Origin: a virus
Virus record (IMG/VR): IMGVR_UViG_3300028864_000019
Span: 1-64,000 of that record
Strand: one strand, 5' to 3'
Length of the DNA stretch: 64,000 nucleotides
This document shows, in pieces, positions 5,283-41,970 of this stretch. Position numbers and translations under genes: made by a program. The notes below the pieces were generated by a model, which ran no database searches, had not been told where the DNA came from, and worked only from the letters and a program-made list of their open reading frames with translations. Position 1 is the first letter of the stretch. The number at the start of each line of letters is the position of its first letter.

Positions 5283-6245
5283 TTAGTTGAAATTATTTTC
5301 TATGTATTCTTTTAATTTATCTGCAATTGCTTGTACTACGTTTAAACTCATAGCATTACCCATCATTCTATATGCTTGTGTGTCACTAATAACTATTCTA
5401 TATGTATCAGGTAATCCTTGAAGTTTTAAGCATTCTATAGGAGTTAACCTTCTAACATTAGTTTTGTTTACTGGTTTGTATTCTGTAGATATGTAATTAT
5501 CAGTATCAGCTCTATGCATCTTGTGCATTGTTGAAGTCAACGTTCTAGCTATAGGTAAATTAATCTCCATCTTGCCACTAATCCAACCTTTTGTTCCGGG
5601 ACTCATTATACAATCATACATTTTTTGAGTTAAATAATATTTATCATCAACACTAGGTTCTAATAAATCTTGCATTGTTAATTTTAGTTCTACTGGCTTT
5701 GGAAATTCAAAATTAAATTCACCTAAGTCTTTTCTTTGACCTATTATATACCATCTTCTTCTTGAATGTGGAATTCCAAATTCTGATGTATTTATTAATT
5801 GATATTTTATATTATAATTTTCTTGCATCATTTCTATAACTACCTTAAAATCTTCTCCATTATTACTACTAGATAAATTTCTAACATTTTCAAATATGAA
5901 CCAGCTAGGTAATTTTTCATTTAATATTCTCATGTAATCAAAGAACAAGCAACTTTCTTCACCTTTTAAACCCTTAACTTTGTTATCTTCCGACCATGTT
6001 TTAGACATCATAGAAACTTGAGTACAAGGTGATCCACCAATTAAAATATCAAAATTTGGCAATTCTTTTTCGTTAATTTTTGTAATATCTCCATAATTAA
6101 TTCTATTAGGGAAATTAGCTTTATAGTTTTTAATTGCAAACTTATCAAATTCAGAATATCCTATATTTTCACAACCTATATTATCTAACGCAATACCTCC
6201 AATTCCTGTTCCTGCAAATAATTCAAAATACTTTTTCTTTTCCAT
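5283..6245 (-). CDS. DNA (cytosine-5)-methyltransferase
   Basis: ELFAGTG, GGSPC, FENV, PHSRRR, RRLTPIECLKLQG, MGNAM. Confidence 0.92.
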   Translation of the reverse strand: MEKKKYFELFAGTGIGGIALDNIGCENIGYSEFDKFAIKNYKANFPNRINYGDITKINEKELPNFDILIGGSPCTQVSMMSKTWSEDNKVKGLKGEESCLFFDYMRILNEKLPSWFIFENVRNLSSSNNGEDFKVVIEMMQENYNIKYQLINTSEFGIPHSRRRWYIIGQRKDLGEFNFEFPKPVELKLTMQDLLEPSVDDKYYLTQKMYDCIMSPGTKGWISGKMEINLPIARTLTSTMHKMHRADTDNYISTEYKPVNKTNVRRLTPIECLKLQGLPDTYRIVISDTQAYRMMGNAMSLNVVQAIADKLKEYIENNFN

Positions 6246-6273
6246 TCTTTTAACTTCCTTTCTTTTTATGTAT

Positions 6274-7176
6274 TTAATTTATTTTTAATTCTTTAATAAT
6301 ATGTACAATTGTATCAATATTCCATCCGTTCCCTATGGCTTTATATCTATTACCACATGAAACCCCTTTTACATTTGTGTAATTGTCTGGTAATCCTTGT
6401 AGCCTTTCACACTCAATTTCTGTGAATCTTCTTAATCCGTAATCATCTTTAATTATATTTGGTGCTGATCTATCTCTTCTAAAGCAATGAGGAACTACAG
6501 TATTTGATTTACCATACTTTATACTCTTATTGTAGAAATCATATATAGGAGTTCCTTTTGACCATTTACATGAGACTTCTCTACAAACATCAGCATGTAA
6601 TAATTGATGCTCTTTGCAATAATGTCCTTCCTCAACCTTTTGCTTCTCTATAATATCATCTATGTATATTTCTTTATCATTTATATTTTGTATGTATTCT
6701 ATGTTTGTCCAATAATAACGCTCTCTATTTTGTGCTGAAAATAAATTTGAATTTATAAGCTTACCTTTAATTCCTATGTAGTCATTAATTACCTCAATCC
6801 ATTCTTGTTTCATTTTCACATTCTCTAATAAAAATTTAACATTGGGATTATTATTTTCTTTTATCCAATTCAAGATATTAATAAATTCAAAAAATAATTT
6901 ACTTTGTTTATGTTCAAAATTCAATCCATTCCCTATTCTTGAAAATCCTTGACATGGACTTCCTGCTAATATTAAATCAATTTTGGGCAAGTTCCAATTT
7001 TTCCACTCAGTAACGTCTCCTAATTTATTTTTAACATCTTGTGGATAATTTTTATCAGCTATTAACATTGCATCTTTATCAATCTCACTTGAATAATAAT
7101 TATCTACTTCAATCTGTGCTTTTTCTAATACTACTCTTCCACAACTTATTCCATTAAACAAACTTAATACATTCAC
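6274..7176 (-). CDS. DNA (cytosine-5)-methyltransferase
   Basis: SLFNG, GSPCQGFS, ENV, QNRER, ECERLQG, IGNGW. Confidence 0.92.
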   Translation of the reverse strand: MNVLSLFNGISCGRVVLEKAQIEVDNYYSSEIDKDAMLIADKNYPQDVKNKLGDVTEWKNWNLPKIDLILAGSPCQGFSRIGNGLNFEHKQSKLFFEFINILNWIKENNNPNVKFLLENVKMKQEWIEVINDYIGIKGKLINSNLFSAQNRERYYWTNIEYIQNINDKEIYIDDIIEKQKVEEGHYCKEHQLLHADVCREVSCKWSKGTPIYDFYNKSIKYGKSNTVVPHCFRRDRSAPNIIKDDYGLRRFTEIECERLQGLPDNYTNVKGVSCGNRYKAIGNGWNIDTIVHIIKELKIN

Positions 7177-7289
7177 TTTTTCACTTCCTTTACATTATTC
7201 GTTTAATATAATTTATTAATAACCAAATAAAACTAATATTTTACTTGCTTGTCCAAGTCTGTAAAGTGTCTTATAGCCTCATTCTTTAT

Positions 7290-7502
7290 TTATAATAAAT
7301 ATGATTCTTCGAAATATTTCTCTTTAAAATCTTCACTCATCCATCTTTTTAATTTTTCATCGTCAAAAGTATAGCCTATAAACCCTTTTATTTTAGTCCA
7401 TCTATTTTCTACGTAGTGCATTTTATAATGCCTATCCTTTGTGAAAATTATATCGTCAGTTGGTTCGGCTTCGATTGTTTCTTTACATATCAGCGTAGTC
7501 AT
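7290..7502 (-). CDS. hypothetical protein
   Basis: ORF track. Confidence 0.7.
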   Translation of the reverse strand: MTTLICKETIEAEPTDDIIFTKDRHYKMHYVENRWTKIKGFIGYTFDDEKLKRWMSEDFKEKYFEESYLL

Positions 7503-7503
7503 A

Positions 7504-8226
7504 TTATCTCTTAGCTCCTTTCACTAAATCATAAATATCTATACCATACTCCTCACAAGCATGTTTTAAAAAGTCATTTATATTATCTTTTACATTTTCT
7601 TTATAAATACTTCCTGTTCTTTCTAAATGTTCTTCACTTTGTTTTATTAGTTCATCTATGTTCATATAATACTCTTCATTACATTCACAAATAGGGTCAT
7701 TATATTCTTTTATTAAATCTAATCCTATTTCTACTCTATGTCTAGTTTCATGAGTCATATCCCACTTATAATAATTCTGTAGATAGTATTCTTGGGCAGT
7801 TCCACCAAATTTTCTAGACATAGCCTTTAAATCAACGACCATCTGTCTTATATATTTCATAGGCATGTTTAATAATTCCCACTGCTCAGGATGATGAGAG
7901 TTAGATTTATAATGATGTTCCCATGCTTTATTAAACTGTTCTTCTACATCTTCTTGTGAAATACACTTATCACTCATTCCAGTTAATTCTAATAATTTTC
8001 TTGAAGCTTGTTTTCCACCATAGAACTTCCAAGCATAAGGCTTAAATTCCTTAGAACTAAATTTACTTAAATCATGTGTAAAAGCATGGACAAATAGTTC
8101 CCTAGCTATTCTCCTATTATTACTTTTATCATATTTTTCATTCCAGTATCCTTTACTTACAATCATACATTCAATAAATACATTTTTCTTATGTTCTAGT
8201 ACATATTTTAAATATTCATAATACAT
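7504..8226 (-). CDS. HD-like metal-binding protein (DUF5662-like)
   Basis: HK, HDLSK, WEHHYKSNSHHPEQW, MVVD motifs. Confidence 0.7.
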   Translation of the reverse strand: MYYEYLKYVLEHKKNVFIECMIVSKGYWNEKYDKSNNRRIARELFVHAFTHDLSKFSSKEFKPYAWKFYGGKQASRKLLELTGMSDKCISQEDVEEQFNKAWEHHYKSNSHHPEQWELLNMPMKYIRQMVVDLKAMSRKFGGTAQEYYLQNYYKWDMTHETRHRVEIGLDLIKEYNDPICECNEEYYMNIDELIKQSEEHLERTGSIYKENVKDNINDFLKHACEEYGIDIYDLVKGAKR

Positions 8227-34422: not shown

Positions 34423-35080
34423 TTATATATCTCCATTCTTTTTAATTTATTAATTATTCTTAGCTGTTTTTCAAACTTGTACATTAAATTTAGCTACTAT
34501 TGGCTTAGATTGTTTTGTATTACCTACCGTATAATAGATTTCAACAGTATTTTTATCTATGTATACTGGTTCTTCAAAACTAACGTTAATTGATAATTTA
34601 CTTGTATCCATATTTCTCACCTACTTATATTTAATATTAATACATTAATTTGTTGTTATCAATATTTTCTTTGGAATATTTTTCTAAATTTATTTATAAG
34701 AGAGTTTTGATTATTCAATTTTTAAACTTCCATTTACTCTCTCATACTCCAGTTTACTCCGTTTTTCAAACATAAAAACCCTTTAAAATTTCCCTTTTAC
34801 TTAAAAATTGTTATATTAATTTATTTATCTCGTATATGTTTTAAATATTTCATTTTCTCTAATCTCGCATTTAGTTTGTAGTCTACAAAGCGATACAACG
34901 AATAATACTGTAAAACTTATTATTATTCCTAAAATTATTAACATTATTATTTCCCCCTTATTTGATTATTTTTATCTCATATAGAGTTTCATTATCTATA
35001 TCATTAACTGTATGTAGCCCTAATAACTTATCTAATACTATTAACCCTATTACTATCAATATTCCTTCTAACATCTTATC

Positions 35081-35835: not shown

Positions 35836-36792
35836 TTAGTCCGTTATTTCAACTTTATAGTTAATCATAGCTATGTATAGGTGTTCAGGAATCTGATCTT
35901 TATAATCATTTGCTACTTGCTTAATTCGATTTTCCTTAAATTCTTTATAAGATTGAAATGCTTCTATTTTAGTATCAAATGTCCCAAGATATATACTTTT
36001 ATTATTCTTATCTGTGCCTTTTGCTCTAATTTTCCCATCTTTCTTATTTAAACTAACACCAATAGGAAAATCCCCTCTATAATTCTTTCTATTAATAAAC
36101 AAATTATTTATCCTTTCTGGAACAAAACAACAAGTATCAGGTGAATATATTTTATTTCCCTTAATTAGAATATCTTTATCAAGACACATTTTCTCTCCTT
36201 CTATCTCATAATAATTTTCTTTATACCAGCGTACAAAATTCTCAAAATTGTACCATTCTTCTGCTACAATACAATCTTTATATGTAGGATATTTTTCTTT
36301 ATACTTTTTACTATAACATCTAGTCATCATACTATTCCACTTATAGTATTCTTTACTTGTACTATTGTTTTCGTTTAAAACACTTACCTTATGGGCAATT
36401 CTATTAGTACAATTACTAACTTTTCCTTTTTTAAAATTGTCATATTGCGTTTTAACTCTATATCCACCTTCAAATTCAACTATAATATTTTGTGTATTAA
36501 TGTACTCTACAATAGTCATTTTAATACCATGATTGTTATATTTTACTTCTCCAGTTCTATCAATAAGACATGCCCTTTTAGAATTTTGTTTTTCATAGTC
36601 TGAATTTTTTATTAATCCTCTTTTAAAATTATTATATGTTTTATTATAAGATATGTAACCATCTTCAAACTCAATATCTACATCGTTACATCCTCGATAT
36701 TCTTTAATCCACATCCTTAGCCCTTGAGTGTTAATATTTTCTTCACCTATTCTATTTAATAATTTTTCTTTCATTATTTTTCTCCTTTTCAA
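35836..36792 (-). CDS. HNH-type homing endonuclease with AP2-like C-terminus
   Basis: W.SM.TRCY..PTYKDC.V..EW.NF.NF..W..LDKDIL.KGNKIYSP.TCCFVP; YLGTFDT. Confidence 0.82.
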   Translation of the reverse strand: MKRRKIMKEKLLNRIGEENINTQGLRMWIKEYRGCNDVDIEFEDGYISYNKTYNNFKRGLIKNSDYEKQNSKRACLIDRTGEVKYNNHGIKMTIVEYINTQNIIVEFEGGYRVKTQYDNFKKGKVSNCTNRIAHKVSVLNENNSTSKEYYKWNSMMTRCYSKKYKEKYPTYKDCIVAEEWYNFENFVRWYKENYYEIEGEKMCLDKDILIKGNKIYSPDTCCFVPERINNLFINRKNYRGDFPIGVSLNKKDGKIRAKGTDKNNKSIYLGTFDTKIEAFQSYKEFKENRIKQVANDYKDQIPEHLYIAMINYKVEITD

Positions 36793-36877
36793 TTTACTTT
36801 TAAACTAACAAGAGAGTAATTCCAAGATTTCTCCCAGTCTTACTCTCTTATTGATACCGACTTCTAATTAATAATGA

Positions 36878-36997
36878 TTATCCACGGTCAGAAGGACCAG
36901 CCCATGCAACTAATGTAGTAACGATCATTGATGTAATTATTATAGCCATCATCATAAAGTATTTAACTCTAGCTTTTGTGTTTTTGCTTATCTTCAT
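36878..36997 (-). CDS. secreted signalling propeptide, AimP/Phr-like: MKISKNTKARVKYFMMMAIIITSMIVTTLVAWAGPSDRG (39 aa; not in ORF track)
   Basis: Strong RBS GGAGGAGAGGTGA (37016-37004); basic N-region, hydrophobic core, A-W-A signal peptidase site; predicted mature GPSDRG. Confidence 0.85.
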   Translation of the reverse strand: MKISKNTKARVKYFMMMAIIITSMIVTTLVAWAGPSDRG

Positions 36998-37090
36998 TTT
37001 TGTTCACCTCTCCTCCATATGTACTATTAGCATAAGATTTACTTATACTAAATTGTAAATATGGAAGAAATTATCTTTTGTTTATTTAAT

Positions 37091-37744
37091 TTAGCTTACT
37101 TTATTATTTCTTTTTTCTTCTTCTTTTAATAACAATACATTTTTATATAATGCAACATCTGTTTTTTTAATTTCTTTTTCAAAACATTCAAATTGATCTT
37201 GATATTGTTTATTATTGTTATGTAATAATATGTCCATTATTTGTAGGACAATATTATCATTACGCTCTAGCAAACTTATATTAAATTTTGCTGTTAATTT
37301 ATTAAAATAACCCATTGTATCATTTGGAGTGCATGTTTTAAACGCATCATAATATTCCTCATATGCTTTTATTTTCTCCTCATTGCTCAATTCATCTTTA
37401 TAACTATCTATATAATTATTAAGGGCTTTACTATACTTGTGTTTATTCTCTTTTTTATAATTAGGAATTGAATTCAATTCATCTAATAGTAATTTCGAAT
37501 GTAATTTTGCTGATTGTAAGTGTTCAGGCTTTTTGGTTAATAGTTCTGCCACAACTAATCCATTTAATAACAATCTCCTGTTTTCTATTTTTTTTAATTT
37601 GTCGTGCATTTGAAGAAATAATTTTTGTAATTCAATTATTGCTTTATCTATATCACCTTTTTTACCATTAACCCCGTCCCAAATATCATATGCCTCATCT
37701 AATTTCTTTTTAAATAGTCGTTCAATGGCATCTTCATTTATCAT
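37091..37744 (-). CDS. all-helical TPR-like protein, putative peptide receptor (RRNPP/AimR-like sensor domain, no HTH)
   Basis: Helical pairs with spaced Asn (LLLNG, ALNNY, AKFNI); directly upstream of the propeptide gene. Confidence 0.6.
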   Translation of the reverse strand: MINEDAIERLFKKKLDEAYDIWDGVNGKKGDIDKAIIELQKLFLQMHDKLKKIENRRLLLNGLVVAELLTKKPEHLQSAKLHSKLLLDELNSIPNYKKENKHKYSKALNNYIDSYKDELSNEEKIKAYEEYYDAFKTCTPNDTMGYFNKLTAKFNISLLERNDNIVLQIMDILLHNNNKQYQDQFECFEKEIKKTDVALYKNVLLLKEEEKRNNKVS

Positions 37745-37775
37745 CTTAATGCAACCCCTTTAATCCTCATATATT

Positions 37776-38546
37776 TTACATGACTACAGATTCATCTCCT
37801 GTTTTATATATTTTATAATAATCTCTATAGTCTAATCCATTTTCTTTACAAATGTCTTCTAGTTCCATTAAAAATATTTCTCTTTCTTCTAATAAATGTT
37901 TGACTAAACTTTCAGTCTTTCTTCTTGCTATGGCTTTTTCATAAGTGTGTATGTCTTCTAATTTTTCTTCTAATCTAATTCTTATTTCTTTATTTAATTT
38001 CTCCAATGGCGTTTTCTCTTTTAAATCTCCTAATTGAATGTTTCGGGCATTATCTATGCGTTTCATGGTCAATTCGTCCACAGTACCAACATAAGTAAGC
38101 AAATCATATCTAACGTCTATAGTTGTTATTTGTTCTGTAAGAACTAGAGATTTTTCTTTTAAACCAAAATTCTCAATCTCGACGTGAACAGGAATATTAG
38201 CTTTTGACGATACTTTGCTTGTGATTGGGAATCCATTTACGATAGTTGAATATTGATTACTTAAACTATTTGAGGTTATTAAAAATGGACGTATATTACA
38301 TTGGCAACTACCATTCCTTTTCCCTAAATTAACATACCAAATTTCACATCTTTTTGCTCTTTTAATCTCTCTATATTTTGTTTCGTTATTTAATTTATTA
38401 TTACTATAACTACTCATTAGTTGATCAATTCTTTTGGTGTCCACAACTCCTCCTTTATTTGGAACATCATTTATAGCTATTTCTTTTTCTGCCAATTTAT
38501 CTCTTAATTCTTTTAATCTATTATCATTTTCTAATAAAGTTAGCAT
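37776..38546 (-). CDS. mazF: MazF/PemK-family endoribonuclease with N- and C-terminal extensions
   Basis: KRCEIWYVNLG..GS.Q..IRPFLITSN..N..S.IV..FPITS..HVEI..S.VLTEQITTID aligns by eye to B. subtilis EndoA; ATG 38546 after GAAGGTGG. Confidence 0.85.
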   Translation of the reverse strand: MLTLLENDNRLKELRDKLAEKEIAINDVPNKGGVVDTKRIDQLMSSYSNNKLNNETKYREIKRAKRCEIWYVNLGKRNGSCQCNIRPFLITSNSLSNQYSTIVNGFPITSKVSSKANIPVHVEIENFGLKEKSLVLTEQITTIDVRYDLLTYVGTVDELTMKRIDNARNIQLGDLKEKTPLEKLNKEIRIRLEEKLEDIHTYEKAIARRKTESLVKHLLEEREIFLMELEDICKENGLDYRDYYKIYKTGDESVVM

Positions 38547-38636
38547 TACGACCACCTTCCGCTTAATTAATTCCTTCTTAATTTCCAATTAAAATTACTT
38601 TTTTATATACTTTAATTTGTTTCATCTCATGTTTAA

Positions 38637-38880
38637 ATTTTACTGCTAATTCCATTTCTTGTCAATACCTTTTTCCAATTATTTATAATTTATTTTTAAC
38701 TTCTTTATTAATTTGTTTTGTCAATTCCTATATTCTTATATTACTACTTATTTCCAAACCTGTCAATAACCTTTTTAAATATTTTTTGTTTATACAATAA
38801 TTTGTTTAATATCTTGTCCATGAGTTAATAATACACCTACCTGAATACAATGTCAACAACTATTTAATAAATTAATGTAA
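38637..38880 (-). promoter_or_regulatory. three tandem sigmaA promoters upstream of the mazF-TPR-peptide operon
   Basis: TTGACA-17-TATTAT (38856-38828), TTGACA-17-TAATAT (38766-38738), TTGACA-17-TAAAAT (38665-38637). Confidence 0.72.
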
Positions 38881-38902
38881 TAAGTTTTAGACTTTAAAAT
38901 AT

Positions 38903-38932
38903 AAAAGAAAGACTAGAAATTACTTCTAGTCT
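38903..38932 (-). terminator. intrinsic terminator after the integrase-fold repressor gene
   Basis: AGACTAGAA/TTCTAGTCT stem followed by TTCTTTT on the minus strand. Confidence 0.75.
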
Positions 38933-38933
38933 A

Positions 38934-40091
38934 CTACTCTATATCAACAGCGTCAAAGCCGATTGATGCACAAATATCTTTAACTGTTTGATATGAGTTT
39001 GGATCTATTACTTTAAACTCTGCTGTTTTAGCTTTAAAACTTCCTGTTTGTCGCTTGATAACATTATCTCCAGTCAAACTCTCATATCTCTTTCTCATCA
39101 TAGCGACTGATGTAGCATTAATTTTAGATTCATTGAAAATCTTAATTATAGCTTCAATATCATATGAACTAATCTTTCTCTCTTTTCTAATTTGTAATAA
39201 TAATTCAAACTCTCTAGTAAATAATAAATCGTTAAAAGAAATTCTATCTATTTTTTCTGCATCTATTACTTCTTCTTTTCGTTTTTTATTTAATAATTTA
39301 AACGCAGTAAACACTCTACTATTTACAGTATTATAATTAGCTATTTCTCTCGTATTAATTACATATGCGTCAGATTGGAATAATTGTTTTATTGATTCTT
39401 CTTCTACAATACTATCTACTTCTAATAAAAACTCTATAAATCTATCATCAATCGGCATCAATGTTATAAACTCTTCATTCTCATTATAAACACTGATAAA
39501 TTTGTTTACTACATCTATATCTTTATATCTCAATCGTCTCATATAAATCACTTCTCTACCTAAAACACCATATCGAGCTAATAATAGTGGCTTTATATTT
39601 TCTGAACCAACACACTCTTTCATTTCTCTCATTAAACTATAAAATTCATCCATATTGTATAATTTAGTTTGAAGTAGTTTTTTACTAGATTTTAGAGTCT
39701 TCATAGATTCTACTCCGGACAATGGGTTAACAGATATATCCCCTTTTTCAATATAGTATTCAAAATACTTATTAACAAACAGTTTTATAGTTCCCATTGT
39801 ACTCTCCATAGCATATATGAAGCTATTTAGCATAGATACTACTTCGTTACTCTTAAAGTCTTTTAAATCTTTATTTTTAGCAACTTCATAATCATGGATA
39901 TTGTTATTATAAACCGACCATAAAGGCTTTTTAGTTATTTCGTCCTCATAAGTATTATTTAACCACACAATCTTATCTATTTGAAATTGGTCATATTCAC
40001 CTAAGATTCTTTGCTTTTCCTTTTCTGTTGCTTCAGGTGTATCTCTTTCGTATTTTTGACCTATAAATTCTAAATTTTCTTTAAGCAACAC
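38934..40091 (-). CDS. integrase-fold protein lacking catalytic motifs, SPbeta YopR/MrpR(SroF)-like master repressor
   Basis: Core-binding domain (YE...KDL..F..; YFEYYIEKG..NP) and LLARYGV.G..LRYKDID without the catalytic R or HxxR; follows the DndB-like gene. Confidence 0.7.
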   Translation of the reverse strand: MLLKENLEFIGQKYERDTPEATEKEKQRILGEYDQFQIDKIVWLNNTYEDEITKKPLWSVYNNNIHDYEVAKNKDLKDFKSNEVVSMLNSFIYAMESTMGTIKLFVNKYFEYYIEKGDISVNPLSGVESMKTLKSSKKLLQTKLYNMDEFYSLMREMKECVGSENIKPLLLARYGVLGREVIYMRRLRYKDIDVVNKFISVYNENEEFITLMPIDDRFIEFLLEVDSIVEEESIKQLFQSDAYVINTREIANYNTVNSRVFTAFKLLNKKRKEEVIDAEKIDRISFNDLLFTREFELLLQIRKERKISSYDIEAIIKIFNESKINATSVAMMRKRYESLTGDNVIKRQTGSFKAKTAEFKVIDPNSYQTVKDICASIGFDAVDIE

Positions 40092-41517
40092 GTAGCACCT
40101 CCACTGTTAAATTTGCAAAATAATTATACACATCTTTATAATTACACGTATTTGGACTATTCTTTAATTTTAATTTTTTTAGTTCAGATTCTGGAATTGA
40201 ATATATATTATCAACAATCTCATCTATCCTATTATAATCTCCTAGTACTCTCATTGTATTTGCAATCGCAAGATAACCAACAAACATATTGCAGTCTAAA
40301 AGACTACTGTTATTTTTCATTTCTTCTATATCATCATTAAAATATTTAAATTTCAATGTATCAATTAATTCATCAATTGTTGAACCCAATTTTTTTGATA
40401 TATCTCTAACTAATCCTTTTTTCTCTACAGGAATTTCGGTTAATGTTAAAGCATCTAATAATATAGTTTTATAAGTTAACTTTCTTACCATTTTACGTTC
40501 TTCAAAATTTAATGCAATTTCGTCTTTTAATACTGTTGAATTCTCTTCAATTAATTTCAAGAAATCTACATCATCGCCTTGTTTAAATCCTTTAATAAAT
40601 TCAGGATTTGTATCTGATCTCTCGAATATTTGTCTGATTAATTCTTGAGCATCAGATAAACTTCTCAATACAACCCTAATATCTAGACCACCTTGTAATA
40701 TAGCACCGTTATTTTGTGCTTTATACTGTTCTACAGCTTGATATACTGCTAACATTCTATGAAAACCATCTAACATATCTATAACTGTGAAAGTCTCACT
40801 ATCTAAATCATAATTCGGACTTACATATAAAGTTCCTACATTTGGGTATTTTTCTTCATCTATTGATTCATAATGGCGATTAGGTTCAAAATTTTCCTCT
40901 CCTTCAGCAAGTCTAATATTCACAATTATTTGAGTATCTTCTAATTTTTTGGTTTTAGACAATAATAAATTTGTCATTGCGTCAACATTTTTCTGATTAA
41001 TATCAATAATTCTAACTGAATCGTCTTTAGTCCCTAACGATTTTGTCTTGTATGCTCTCTGAGATAATTTGTTATATCTGAATAGTACAAATTTAATATA
41101 ATTATAGATTTGTTCATATGTGATTCGCCCAACATAGTTATAATTATCTACTTTTTGCATAAAAGGCAATACTACTTGTGTTACCTTCTTCTCTACATTA
41201 GTAAAACTATTATAGTCTAAAATATCTGTATCGCTAAAATATTTTCTATAGTTTAATTTTTCTAATGCTAAAACCTCATAGCAAACCTTAGTAATAGCAA
41301 TTTTTTCTTCTTTAGATAATTTGTTTAATTTAACTGAACCGTCTAAAAACAATCCTGCTGTGATGTTTGTATTCAAATTCTTTTTAGCCAATTCTACATT
41401 AATTGATTTAATCAGCCCTTTATTTTTAAATTCTTTATTAACCACATTTTCTAATTCTTTATTTAAATTGTCCTGACTATAAATCATGACTTCTTGTTGT
41501 CCTTGTTTAAGTTCCAT
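40081..41517 (-). CDS. DndB/ParB-like (DGQHR family) protein, SPbeta YopQ/SroE-like
   Basis: YNKLSQR, IIVN, IDMLDGFHRMLA; overlaps the repressor gene. Confidence 0.72.
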   Translation of the reverse strand: MELKQGQQEVMIYSQDNLNKELENVVNKEFKNKGLIKSINVELAKKNLNTNITAGLFLDGSVKLNKLSKEEKIAITKVCYEVLALEKLNYRKYFSDTDILDYNSFTNVEKKVTQVVLPFMQKVDNYNYVGRITYEQIYNYIKFVLFRYNKLSQRAYKTKSLGTKDDSVRIIDINQKNVDAMTNLLLSKTKKLEDTQIIVNIRLAEGEENFEPNRHYESIDEEKYPNVGTLYVSPNYDLDSETFTVIDMLDGFHRMLAVYQAVEQYKAQNNGAILQGGLDIRVVLRSLSDAQELIRQIFERSDTNPEFIKGFKQGDDVDFLKLIEENSTVLKDEIALNFEERKMVRKLTYKTILLDALTLTEIPVEKKGLVRDISKKLGSTIDELIDTLKFKYFNDDIEEMKNNSSLLDCNMFVGYLAIANTMRVLGDYNRIDEIVDNIYSIPESELKKLKLKNSPNTCNYKDVYNYFANLTVEVLRVA

Positions 41518-41679: not shown

Positions 41680-41970
41680 TCATTTGGTAATTTTAATTCT
41701 TATGACTCTCTTGCCATATTCCAATATTAATATTTCATCTATGTAGTCACATTTTTTAAAGCTATCATTCTCTATTTCTATATCCATTATACTAATTCCT
41801 ATAGTACCCCAGAAATCTTTAGCCTTACACAGTAGATTTTGTCTATTCTCTTCTATTAATAGATTTTTATTATTTTGTTGAGCCATGAAAATATAACCTA
41901 GTATATTATCTACATTTATTCCTCTTTCTTTATTTTGTATTTGTTTAATTTTTTCTACTCTCATTTCCAT
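41680..41970 (-). CDS. hypothetical protein
   Basis: ORF track. Confidence 0.6.
   Translation of the reverse strand: MEMRVEKIKQIQNKERGINVDNILGYIFMAQQNNKNLLIEENRQNLLCKAKDFWGTIGISIMDIEIENDSFKKCDYIDEILILEYGKRVIRIKITK

Follow-up and report, generated by a model that had tools for sequence, protein, structure and literature searches.

Arbitrium is, to our knowledge, the only well-characterised peptide language used between phages; it is known almost solely from phages of Bacillus and relies on a regulator that works at the DNA or RNA level. Its genes in SPbeta follow the order aimR, aimP, (aimX), yopM-yopR. Receptors built of tetratricopeptide repeats (TPR) without a helix-turn-helix (HTH) domain and encoded next to a secreted peptide, namely the Rap-Phr pairs that are also found in phages, act on assorted proteins. 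MazF toxins have been tied to peptides as well: extracellular death factors (EDF; E. coli NNWNN and others) are reported to modulate MazF, which is disputed in the field. In phage phi3T the MazF of the host favours lysogeny when active, and AimX, which is under arbitrium control, holds MazF off at low peptide (PMC10769878). The cassette described here is found in the viral record IMGVR_UViG_3300028864_000019 (111,869 bp, ~54% complete), whose positions 1-64,000 compose the 64,000-nucleotide stretch analysed, hereafter the window. Its minus strand codes for a long MazF/PemK protein (256 aa, 37776..38546), for an HTH-less TPR-like protein (217 aa, 37091..37744) that is a candidate peptide receptor and MazF partner, and for a 39-aa propeptide (36878..36997) whose predicted mature form is the hexapeptide GPSDRG (codons 36881-36898). 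The best reading of this cassette is a Rap/Phr-like, arbitrium-like peptide sensor with post-translational action on the phage MazF, and we regard the chances that the operon is a phage peptide-communication cassette acting on protein rather than DNA as about evenly balanced. The host may be clostridial, the GC content of 25.5% being the sole support on this point.

The cassette has relatives in other large phages. A scan of viral contigs with the alignment of long MazF proteins gave full-length matches in four large contigs from phages (116-196 kb), while a fifth related contig (229 kb, L182) was reached via a TPR sub-alignment. The order yopQ-like, yopR-like, long mazF, TPR gene and signal-peptide mini-open reading frame (mini-ORF) is found in all six loci, the window and the five viral contigs. 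The five relatives share an 85-104-aa ORF, the yopQ-like and yopR-like genes, two to three promoters, the long mazF, a gene for a TPR protein of 207-220 aa, the mini-ORF and a hairpin, which is followed by a T-run 3' of the peptide gene in L002, L003 and L004. The cassette is more than a chance arrangement because the five-gene order with its mini-ORF recurs in these five further contigs. In the loci retrieved the TPR gene is seen only together with long MazF, and a hidden Markov model search did not find a TPR homologue at 167 ordinary short-MazF loci (7 viral, 160 from genomes or metagenomes). The scans of genomes and metagenomes with the MazF alignment gave these 160 ordinary short MazF loci and zero added cases of synteny. 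An earlier note on this DNA had proposed a search for conserved mazF-TPR-peptide synteny; TPR homologues with retrievable context are positioned between long mazF and the propeptide gene in 6/6 cases. A short MazF of 128 aa, followed by multi-pass membrane proteins, is encoded at 5992-7978 of the 167-kb viral contig L009.

The product of the 39-aa ORF has the features of a Sec-exported precursor: a basic n-region, a hydrophobic core of 18 residues and A-W-A immediately before the terminal GPSDRG. The ORF is preceded by a very strong ribosome binding site (RBS; GGAGGAGAGGTG). Positional equivalents of 29-40 aa, all with a strong RBS and a signal-like amino terminus, are found 35-95 nt 3' of the receptor gene at 6/6 loci, so the signal-peptide ORF announced by the earlier note at 36878-36997 has a counterpart in each of the five related contigs. 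Mature peptides were predicted by the -3/-1 rule (small residue at -1), and the predicted cleavage leaves exactly six residues in 6/6 mini-ORFs: GPSDRG (window), GTSTRG (L002), GSIGRG (L003), TTGSKG (L182), SGNGWG (L004) and SGGGWG (L005). The six predicted peptides differ by phage and define two classes, xxxx[R/K]G and SGxGWG. As in the arbitrium of SPbeta and phi3T, the precursor is phage-encoded, the presumed signal is formed by its final six residues and has a carboxyl terminus of the R/K-G type, and the receptor gene lies immediately upstream of the peptide gene on the same strand. Unlike the arbitrium peptide, the hexapeptide comes directly past the predicted signal-peptidase site without a pro-region. 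A different, conserved small ORF (~39 aa) with a hydrophobic amino terminus and a carboxyl terminus ..E(L/I)KIIK is encoded nearby, at 34958-35074 (-) of the window, 7646-7774 of L002, 7740-7859 of L003 and 8233-8352 of L005. In L002 and L003 it lies directly 3' of the peptide gene, from which it is parted by an HNH gene and a 215-aa ORF in the window.

The 217-aa protein was modelled by AlphaFold2 (AF2) with a predicted local distance difference test score (pLDDT) of 91.7, and the model features 11 TPR-like helices (residues 4-216) forming about five repeats. Its best structural matches are TPR proteins (VIA Z 11-13.5), and these include PlcR-PapR (Z 12.9, 175 aligned residues, root-mean-square deviation (rmsd) 4.9) and the Rap-peptide complex of phage phi105 (Z 11.4, 187 aligned, rmsd 4.4). 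The TPR-type solenoid fold of this model is confidently assigned. The protein has no family match in Pfam, PHROG or NCBIfam, among which no known receptor family (Rap, NprR, PlcR, PrgX, Rgg, AimR) is matched by sequence, and no HTH match in Pfam or NCBIfam. PDB sequence and profile searches give no significant match and no receptor, Foldseek retrieves only weak TPR rows, all with E >0.01, and the clusters matched in the ESM Atlas are all hypothetical or generic TPR ones. Among 1.84 billion representatives, a profile search finds 63 clusters of the TPR family (62-229 aa); the proteins are stand-alone in all 63, with no fused DNA-binding domain in any of them, and those members that were looked up are all of metagenomic origin and bear the name 'hypothetical protein'. 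No match for the TPR protein was obtained in plasmids, nor for the protein or the DNA of the region in the phage collection, and a search of 164 genomes from one family and of two clostridial genomes gave no TPR homologue. In Clostridium phage c-st there is a match to MazF but none to the TPR protein. The close TPR alignment A1 finds no related loci in viral, genome or metagenome collections, and the scan with sub-alignment A10 finds no match.

These data agree with the earlier description of a helical, HTH-less TPR-like protein and delimit in what sense the system is arbitrium-like. The logic holds, with a propeptide, a TPR protein and a MazF encoded side by side, while kinship to AimR does not: the profile of the TPR family (46 sequences) against SPbeta AimR (yopK) gives an hhalign probability of 0.3%, and the present receptor has 217 aa, about five repeats and no HTH as compared to the 386 aa, nine repeats and HTH of AimR. 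No AimR homologue was found in the 112-kb record. Rap-Phr pairs (phi3T and phi105 Rap, RapI-PhrI of ICEBs1) resemble the cassette in design: their TPR receptor has no HTH and regulates through binding to a target protein, the cognate secreted penta- or hexapeptide is encoded immediately 3' of it, and they are carried on mobile elements. They differ in that the receptor of the cassette is ~160 aa shorter, without the N-terminal three-helix target-binding domain, in that its target is predicted to be inside the TPR groove itself, and in that this target is the tail of a MazF toxin instead of a response regulator or protease.

The mazF gene starts with an ATG preceded by the RBS GGAAGGTGG. Its product matches the Pfam family PemK_toxin (PF02452) over residues 65-167 (E 9.6e-20, 71.3 bits for a cut-off of 23.1; 72.8 bits in the PF02452 search of its own genome) and phrog_1936, 'MazF-like growth inhibitor' (E 1.5e-21). 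The AF2 layout has three parts: a variable, low-confidence amino-terminal extension (~1-64), a beta-barrel RNase core (65-171) and a carboxyl-terminal extension (186-254) composed of helices 186-208, 212-235 and 240-254. The GSxQ..RP loop and the ITS motif are kept in the core, as seen by alignment to solved MazF/EndoA/PemK structures, in which the MazF chains of B. anthracis, S. aureus and B. subtilis align at the RP and IT(A/S) motifs; R86 and T109 are invariant across 11 long MazF homologues. Because these catalytic Arg and Thr motifs are conserved, the phage MazF is probably active. The long form has about a dozen homologues (248-279 aa) whose carboxyl-terminal extension is conserved. One of them, P0012, joins a different RNase core to a tail that is 74% identical to the tail of the window MazF, and the tail alone as query finds only MazF fusions as partners in a word-index search, which is weak evidence. 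In L182 (4111-4969) a frame shift of one base, within an A8 run that immediately precedes the catalytic loop, divides the long mazF. It may reflect phase variation, a pseudogene or an error of assembly, and the adjoining TPR and peptide genes are intact.

The tail is also where the TPR protein is predicted to bind. Complex prediction from the full-length MazF alignment and the TPR alignment gave ipSAE (interaction prediction score from aligned errors) values of 0.77, 0.77 and 0.74, the best of three controls reaching 0.00; the mark applied is reached by 58/80 solved complexes and by 2/110 mismatched pairs, a calibration that is rough here as own alignments were used. The runs have at least 87% of contacts in common and the pLDDT of the partner is 88. 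The TPR-MazF complex suggested by the earlier note is thus obtained, as a prediction. On the MazF side the interface is made by residues 205-234, which span helix 2 of the tail and the end of its helix 1, and the codons of this predicted TPR-docking helix occupy 37845..37934 on the minus strand. On the TPR side it involves residues 19, 22-25, 32, 58-69, 102-106 and 142-148 on helices H1, H3, H5 and H7. Alternate helices of TPR solenoids line the concave ligand-binding face, the face on which RRNPP receptors bind their peptides, and the MazF tail helix is predicted to sit in this concave groove. Recall of the prediction from a solved complex is unlikely because the TPR protein has no PDB relative by sequence.

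Covariation among the six loci (15 pairs), an independent line, points in the same direction. TPR identity follows the identity of the MazF carboxyl-terminal extension (Pearson 0.76, Spearman 0.63) and of its docking segment 205-234 (r 0.70), with r -0.07 for the RNase core and a weak r of 0.29 for YopR. MazF tails are of two types that match the two classes of peptide, whereas cores are shuffled among them; although the sample is small and phylogenetically non-independent, this points to tail, TPR protein and peptide as one co-inherited unit. These results bear on whether MazF is the target at all. A Rap-Phr-like module could instead address the yopR-like repressor, the yopQ-like partner or a host regulator, MazF being a mere co-transcribed effector or moron and the predicted contact an artefact. 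Such a choice would be in keeping with the assorted targets of Rap-Phr receptors, with the phi105 Rap-peptide complex among the fold matches (Z 11.4) and with the position of the cassette next to repressor genes in all loci. It is nevertheless distinctly unlikely: the TPR gene is never without long MazF in the retrieved loci, its identity follows the MazF tail better than YopR, the predicted complex clears the mark while its controls score 0.00, and an all-TPR-like protein of 217 aa is devoid of the domain by which Raps bind their targets.

A second explanation keeps MazF as the target and dispenses with communication. The locus would be an unconventional type II toxin-antitoxin (TA) pair engaged in addiction, superinfection exclusion or defence, with MazF as toxin, the TPR protein as a non-canonical antitoxin and the small ORF as a secreted or membrane bystander. 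The toxin-first order, the gap of 31 nt between mazF and the TPR gene and the lack of MazE are typical of reversed TA operons, the predicted TPR-MazF binding fits equally, and morons of the 'MazF-like growth inhibitor' type are common in phages (phrog_1936; 47 phage records). We consider this explanation unlikely, for a bystander would hardly keep its position, strong RBS, signal and exactly six residues past the predicted cleavage in 6/6 loci, and the mature peptide diverges in step with the TPR subfamily as in receptor-pheromone pairs. In addition, the TPR protein has no PADLOC defence model. Resemblance to MazEF/PemIK is limited to the bona fide MazF/PemK core with catalytic Arg and Thr motifs and to a co-transcribed protein that is predicted to bind the toxin. 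The partner here is a TPR protein encoded downstream in place of a MazE/AbrB antitoxin, its predicted contact is on an added three-helix tail and not on the RNA groove, and the operon includes a gene for a secreted peptide. With EDF the cassette has in common a short extracellular peptide tied to MazF activity as a density signal. EDF, however, is not known to be encoded beside mazF or to have a signal-peptide precursor and was proposed to bind MazF directly, whereas the cassette has a gene for the precursor and another for a candidate TPR sensor dedicated to it.

The minus-strand order of the region is a 96-aa ORF, the yopQ-like gene, the yopR-like gene, a terminator, three promoters, mazF, the TPR gene, the 39-aa ORF, a hairpin and an HNH gene. 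The earlier note described three co-oriented genes behind their own triple promoter, parted by a terminator from YopQ/YopR-like genes and with no mazE-like gene nearby, all of which is found. The intrinsic terminator (38910..38932, 10-bp stem then T-run) closes the yopQ/yopR operon directly 3' of the yopR-like gene and is the sole terminator-like site called in 36500-39100. It is followed by three tandem sigma-A-like promoters (38637..38856) at 38856-38828, 38766-38738 and 38665-38637, which score 11, 10 and 11 of 12 in the promoter scan and are the top three promoter matches of the region. No ORF of 30 aa or more is found between the terminator and mazF. The MazE/AbrB domain (PF04014) was not found anywhere in the 111,869-bp record, control genomes giving matches, and there is no second MazF in the record. 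At the other end of the cassette, a terminator-like hairpin with 10-bp arms, a 20-nt loop and a weak T tail (36810..36849, minus strand) was read from the sequence, as the terminator scan passes over loops >8 nt and did not call it. An HNH homing-endonuclease-like gene (35836..36792 (-), phrog_953 E 1.7e-64) comes immediately after. It is missing at that position in L002, L003 and L005, and L182 has a different gene there, coding 524 aa; the site after the cassette appears to be an insertion hotspot.

The upstream operon relates the locus to the SPbeta family. The 478-aa product of the yopQ-like gene (40081..41517 (-)) matches, by tblastn of the phage collection, SPbeta-family phages only, at SPBc2 yopQ (26% identity, E 2e-11), and phrog_5732 (E 3.7e-29); a DGxHR motif is invariant in its alignment. 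The 385-aa product of the yopR/MrpR-like gene (38934..40091 (-)) is a candidate integrase-fold repressor that matches the phrog_5830 integrase (E 6e-10). The MrpR amino-terminal core-binding domain (MrpR_N_CB) is matched by 6/6 yopR-like proteins (best E 6e-6), the window copy reaching E 6e-5 and 24 bits, just under the cut-off of 27, while its similarity to SPbeta YopR by hhalign is weak (E 0.0025). Neither protein has a significant PDB match by sequence or profile search. The YopQ/YopR-like attribution proposed earlier finds support in the tblastn result and in the domain common to all six yopR-like proteins. Location of the module beside yopQ and yopR homologues is shared with arbitrium, with the difference that the signalling cassette comes after yopR here and not before yopM as in SPbeta. 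Further upstream, 5' of the yopQ-like gene, an ORF of 84-104 aa starting MEM.. and without family match is present in all six loci (window 41680-41970 (-), L002 2615-2875, L003 2573-2830, L004 2670-2924, L005 2502-2816, L182 892-1152). In L182 a divergent gene for a 68-aa XRE-type HTH protein is just upstream of it.

Each cassette promoter is followed by an AAACAAATTA box, with ends at 38798, 38709 and 38613, and two or three such promoter-box units spaced by 88-110 bp are found at all six loci. The box AAACAAATTAA is observed 10 times in the window for 1.0 expected. Its sites include 38612-38622, 38708-38718, 38797-38807, 13481, 30001, 35745 and 61127 on the minus strand and 42010 and 59066 on the plus strand. 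At several of them, all three cassette promoters included, it is positioned 15-20 nt past a TTGACA-17-TAxxxT promoter on the transcribed strand. It may serve as a leader or operator box throughout the phage; by analogy to SPBRE of SPbeta, the yopR-like repressor is perhaps what it binds. The tandem units upstream of mazF were also considered as a type III (ToxI-like) antitoxin RNA. This was rejected, since there is no tandem array beyond low-complexity AT repeats and no Rfam match; the units, of roughly 90-100 bp, have in common just the promoter hexamers and the AAACAAATTA box. No aimX-like regulated transcript was identified in the cassette, unlike in arbitrium.

According to the peptide-sensor reading, the operon would be transcribed from the three tandem promoters just 3' of the SPbeta-type yopQ/yopR-like repressor genes. 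The 39-aa precursor would be exported and cut by signal peptidase after A-W-A, freeing GPSDRG, which would build up as more cells are infected or lysogenic and be taken back in by the host oligopeptide permease. Inside the cell the TPR groove is predicted to hold the helix of the MazF carboxyl-terminal tail, and the cognate hexapeptide, once bound by the TPR protein, would change the complex, most likely displacing the tail and freeing MazF. MazF activity would thereby report phage density, high peptide leading to active MazF and to a bias towards growth arrest or lysogeny. This outcome is expected because it would be analogous to that of the AimR-AimX-host MazF pathway in phi3T. MazF would in both cases be the downstream effector of the decision (PMC10769878). 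The cassette differs from arbitrium in that its MazF is phage-encoded with a dedicated docking tail, arbitrium acting via host MazEF, and in that control is predicted to be exerted between proteins and not by antitermination or transcription.

Several points weigh against this reading. Generic TPR proteins tie with the peptide receptors in the structural matches (Z 12-13.5), which establishes the fold and not a specific receptor family, and with 217 aa the protein is smaller than any characterised RRNPP receptor that we know of. Genomic context covers just 6 of the ~63 TPR clusters, and covariation comes from six related phages whose pairs are non-independent. The record is ~54% complete, so that a MazE or AimR gene could sit in the missing part. 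Re-import of the peptide presumes that the host has an oligopeptide permease. Finally, the predicted contact is with the tail and not with the RNase active site; therefore neutralisation is not implied, and such a contact would suit either polarity. This leaves room for a circuit of reversed sign: MazF would be autoinhibited or mislocalised by its own tail, the TPR protein would act as activator or chaperone, and the peptide would turn MazF off at high density. An interface at a distance from the RNA-binding groove, where TPR binding need not neutralise, and a disordered, variable amino-terminal extension that could itself mask the active site would both suit such a circuit. We find it quite unlikely, as the phi3T analogy calls for more MazF activity and more lysogeny at high peptide (PMC10769878) and as a constitutively expressed active MazF would need an inhibitor, for which the TPR protein is the sole candidate, no other antitoxin being present in the record.

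A full-text literature search found no description of a MazF-TPR-peptide cassette, and the RRNPP_detector paper has no mention of MazF or PemK. Peptide-gated HTH-less TPR receptors are known; what would be new here is the receptor family, the target class and the docking device. A bolder proposal, which we hold tentatively as possible rather than probable, is that tail, TPR protein and hexapeptide compose a portable post-translational quorum-sensing unit grafted onto interchangeable MazF cores, which would set lysis-lysogeny by phage-specific kin counting with no transcription factor. Phages would then have a second system of communication, distinct in mechanism and found outside Bacillus. The compact three-part organization (toxin, sensor, hexapeptide), with its natural specificity variants, would be of use for the study of lysis-lysogeny decisions and TA regulation and for orthogonal synthetic switches. 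If the peptide-sensor reading is true, this would be the first secreted peptide to gate a toxin via a dedicated sensor protein, peptide communication would extend to a different group of phages, uncultured, very large and AT-rich, whose repressor is of the SPbeta type, and the dependence of phi3T on host MazF would seem to reflect a broader link between phages and MazF.

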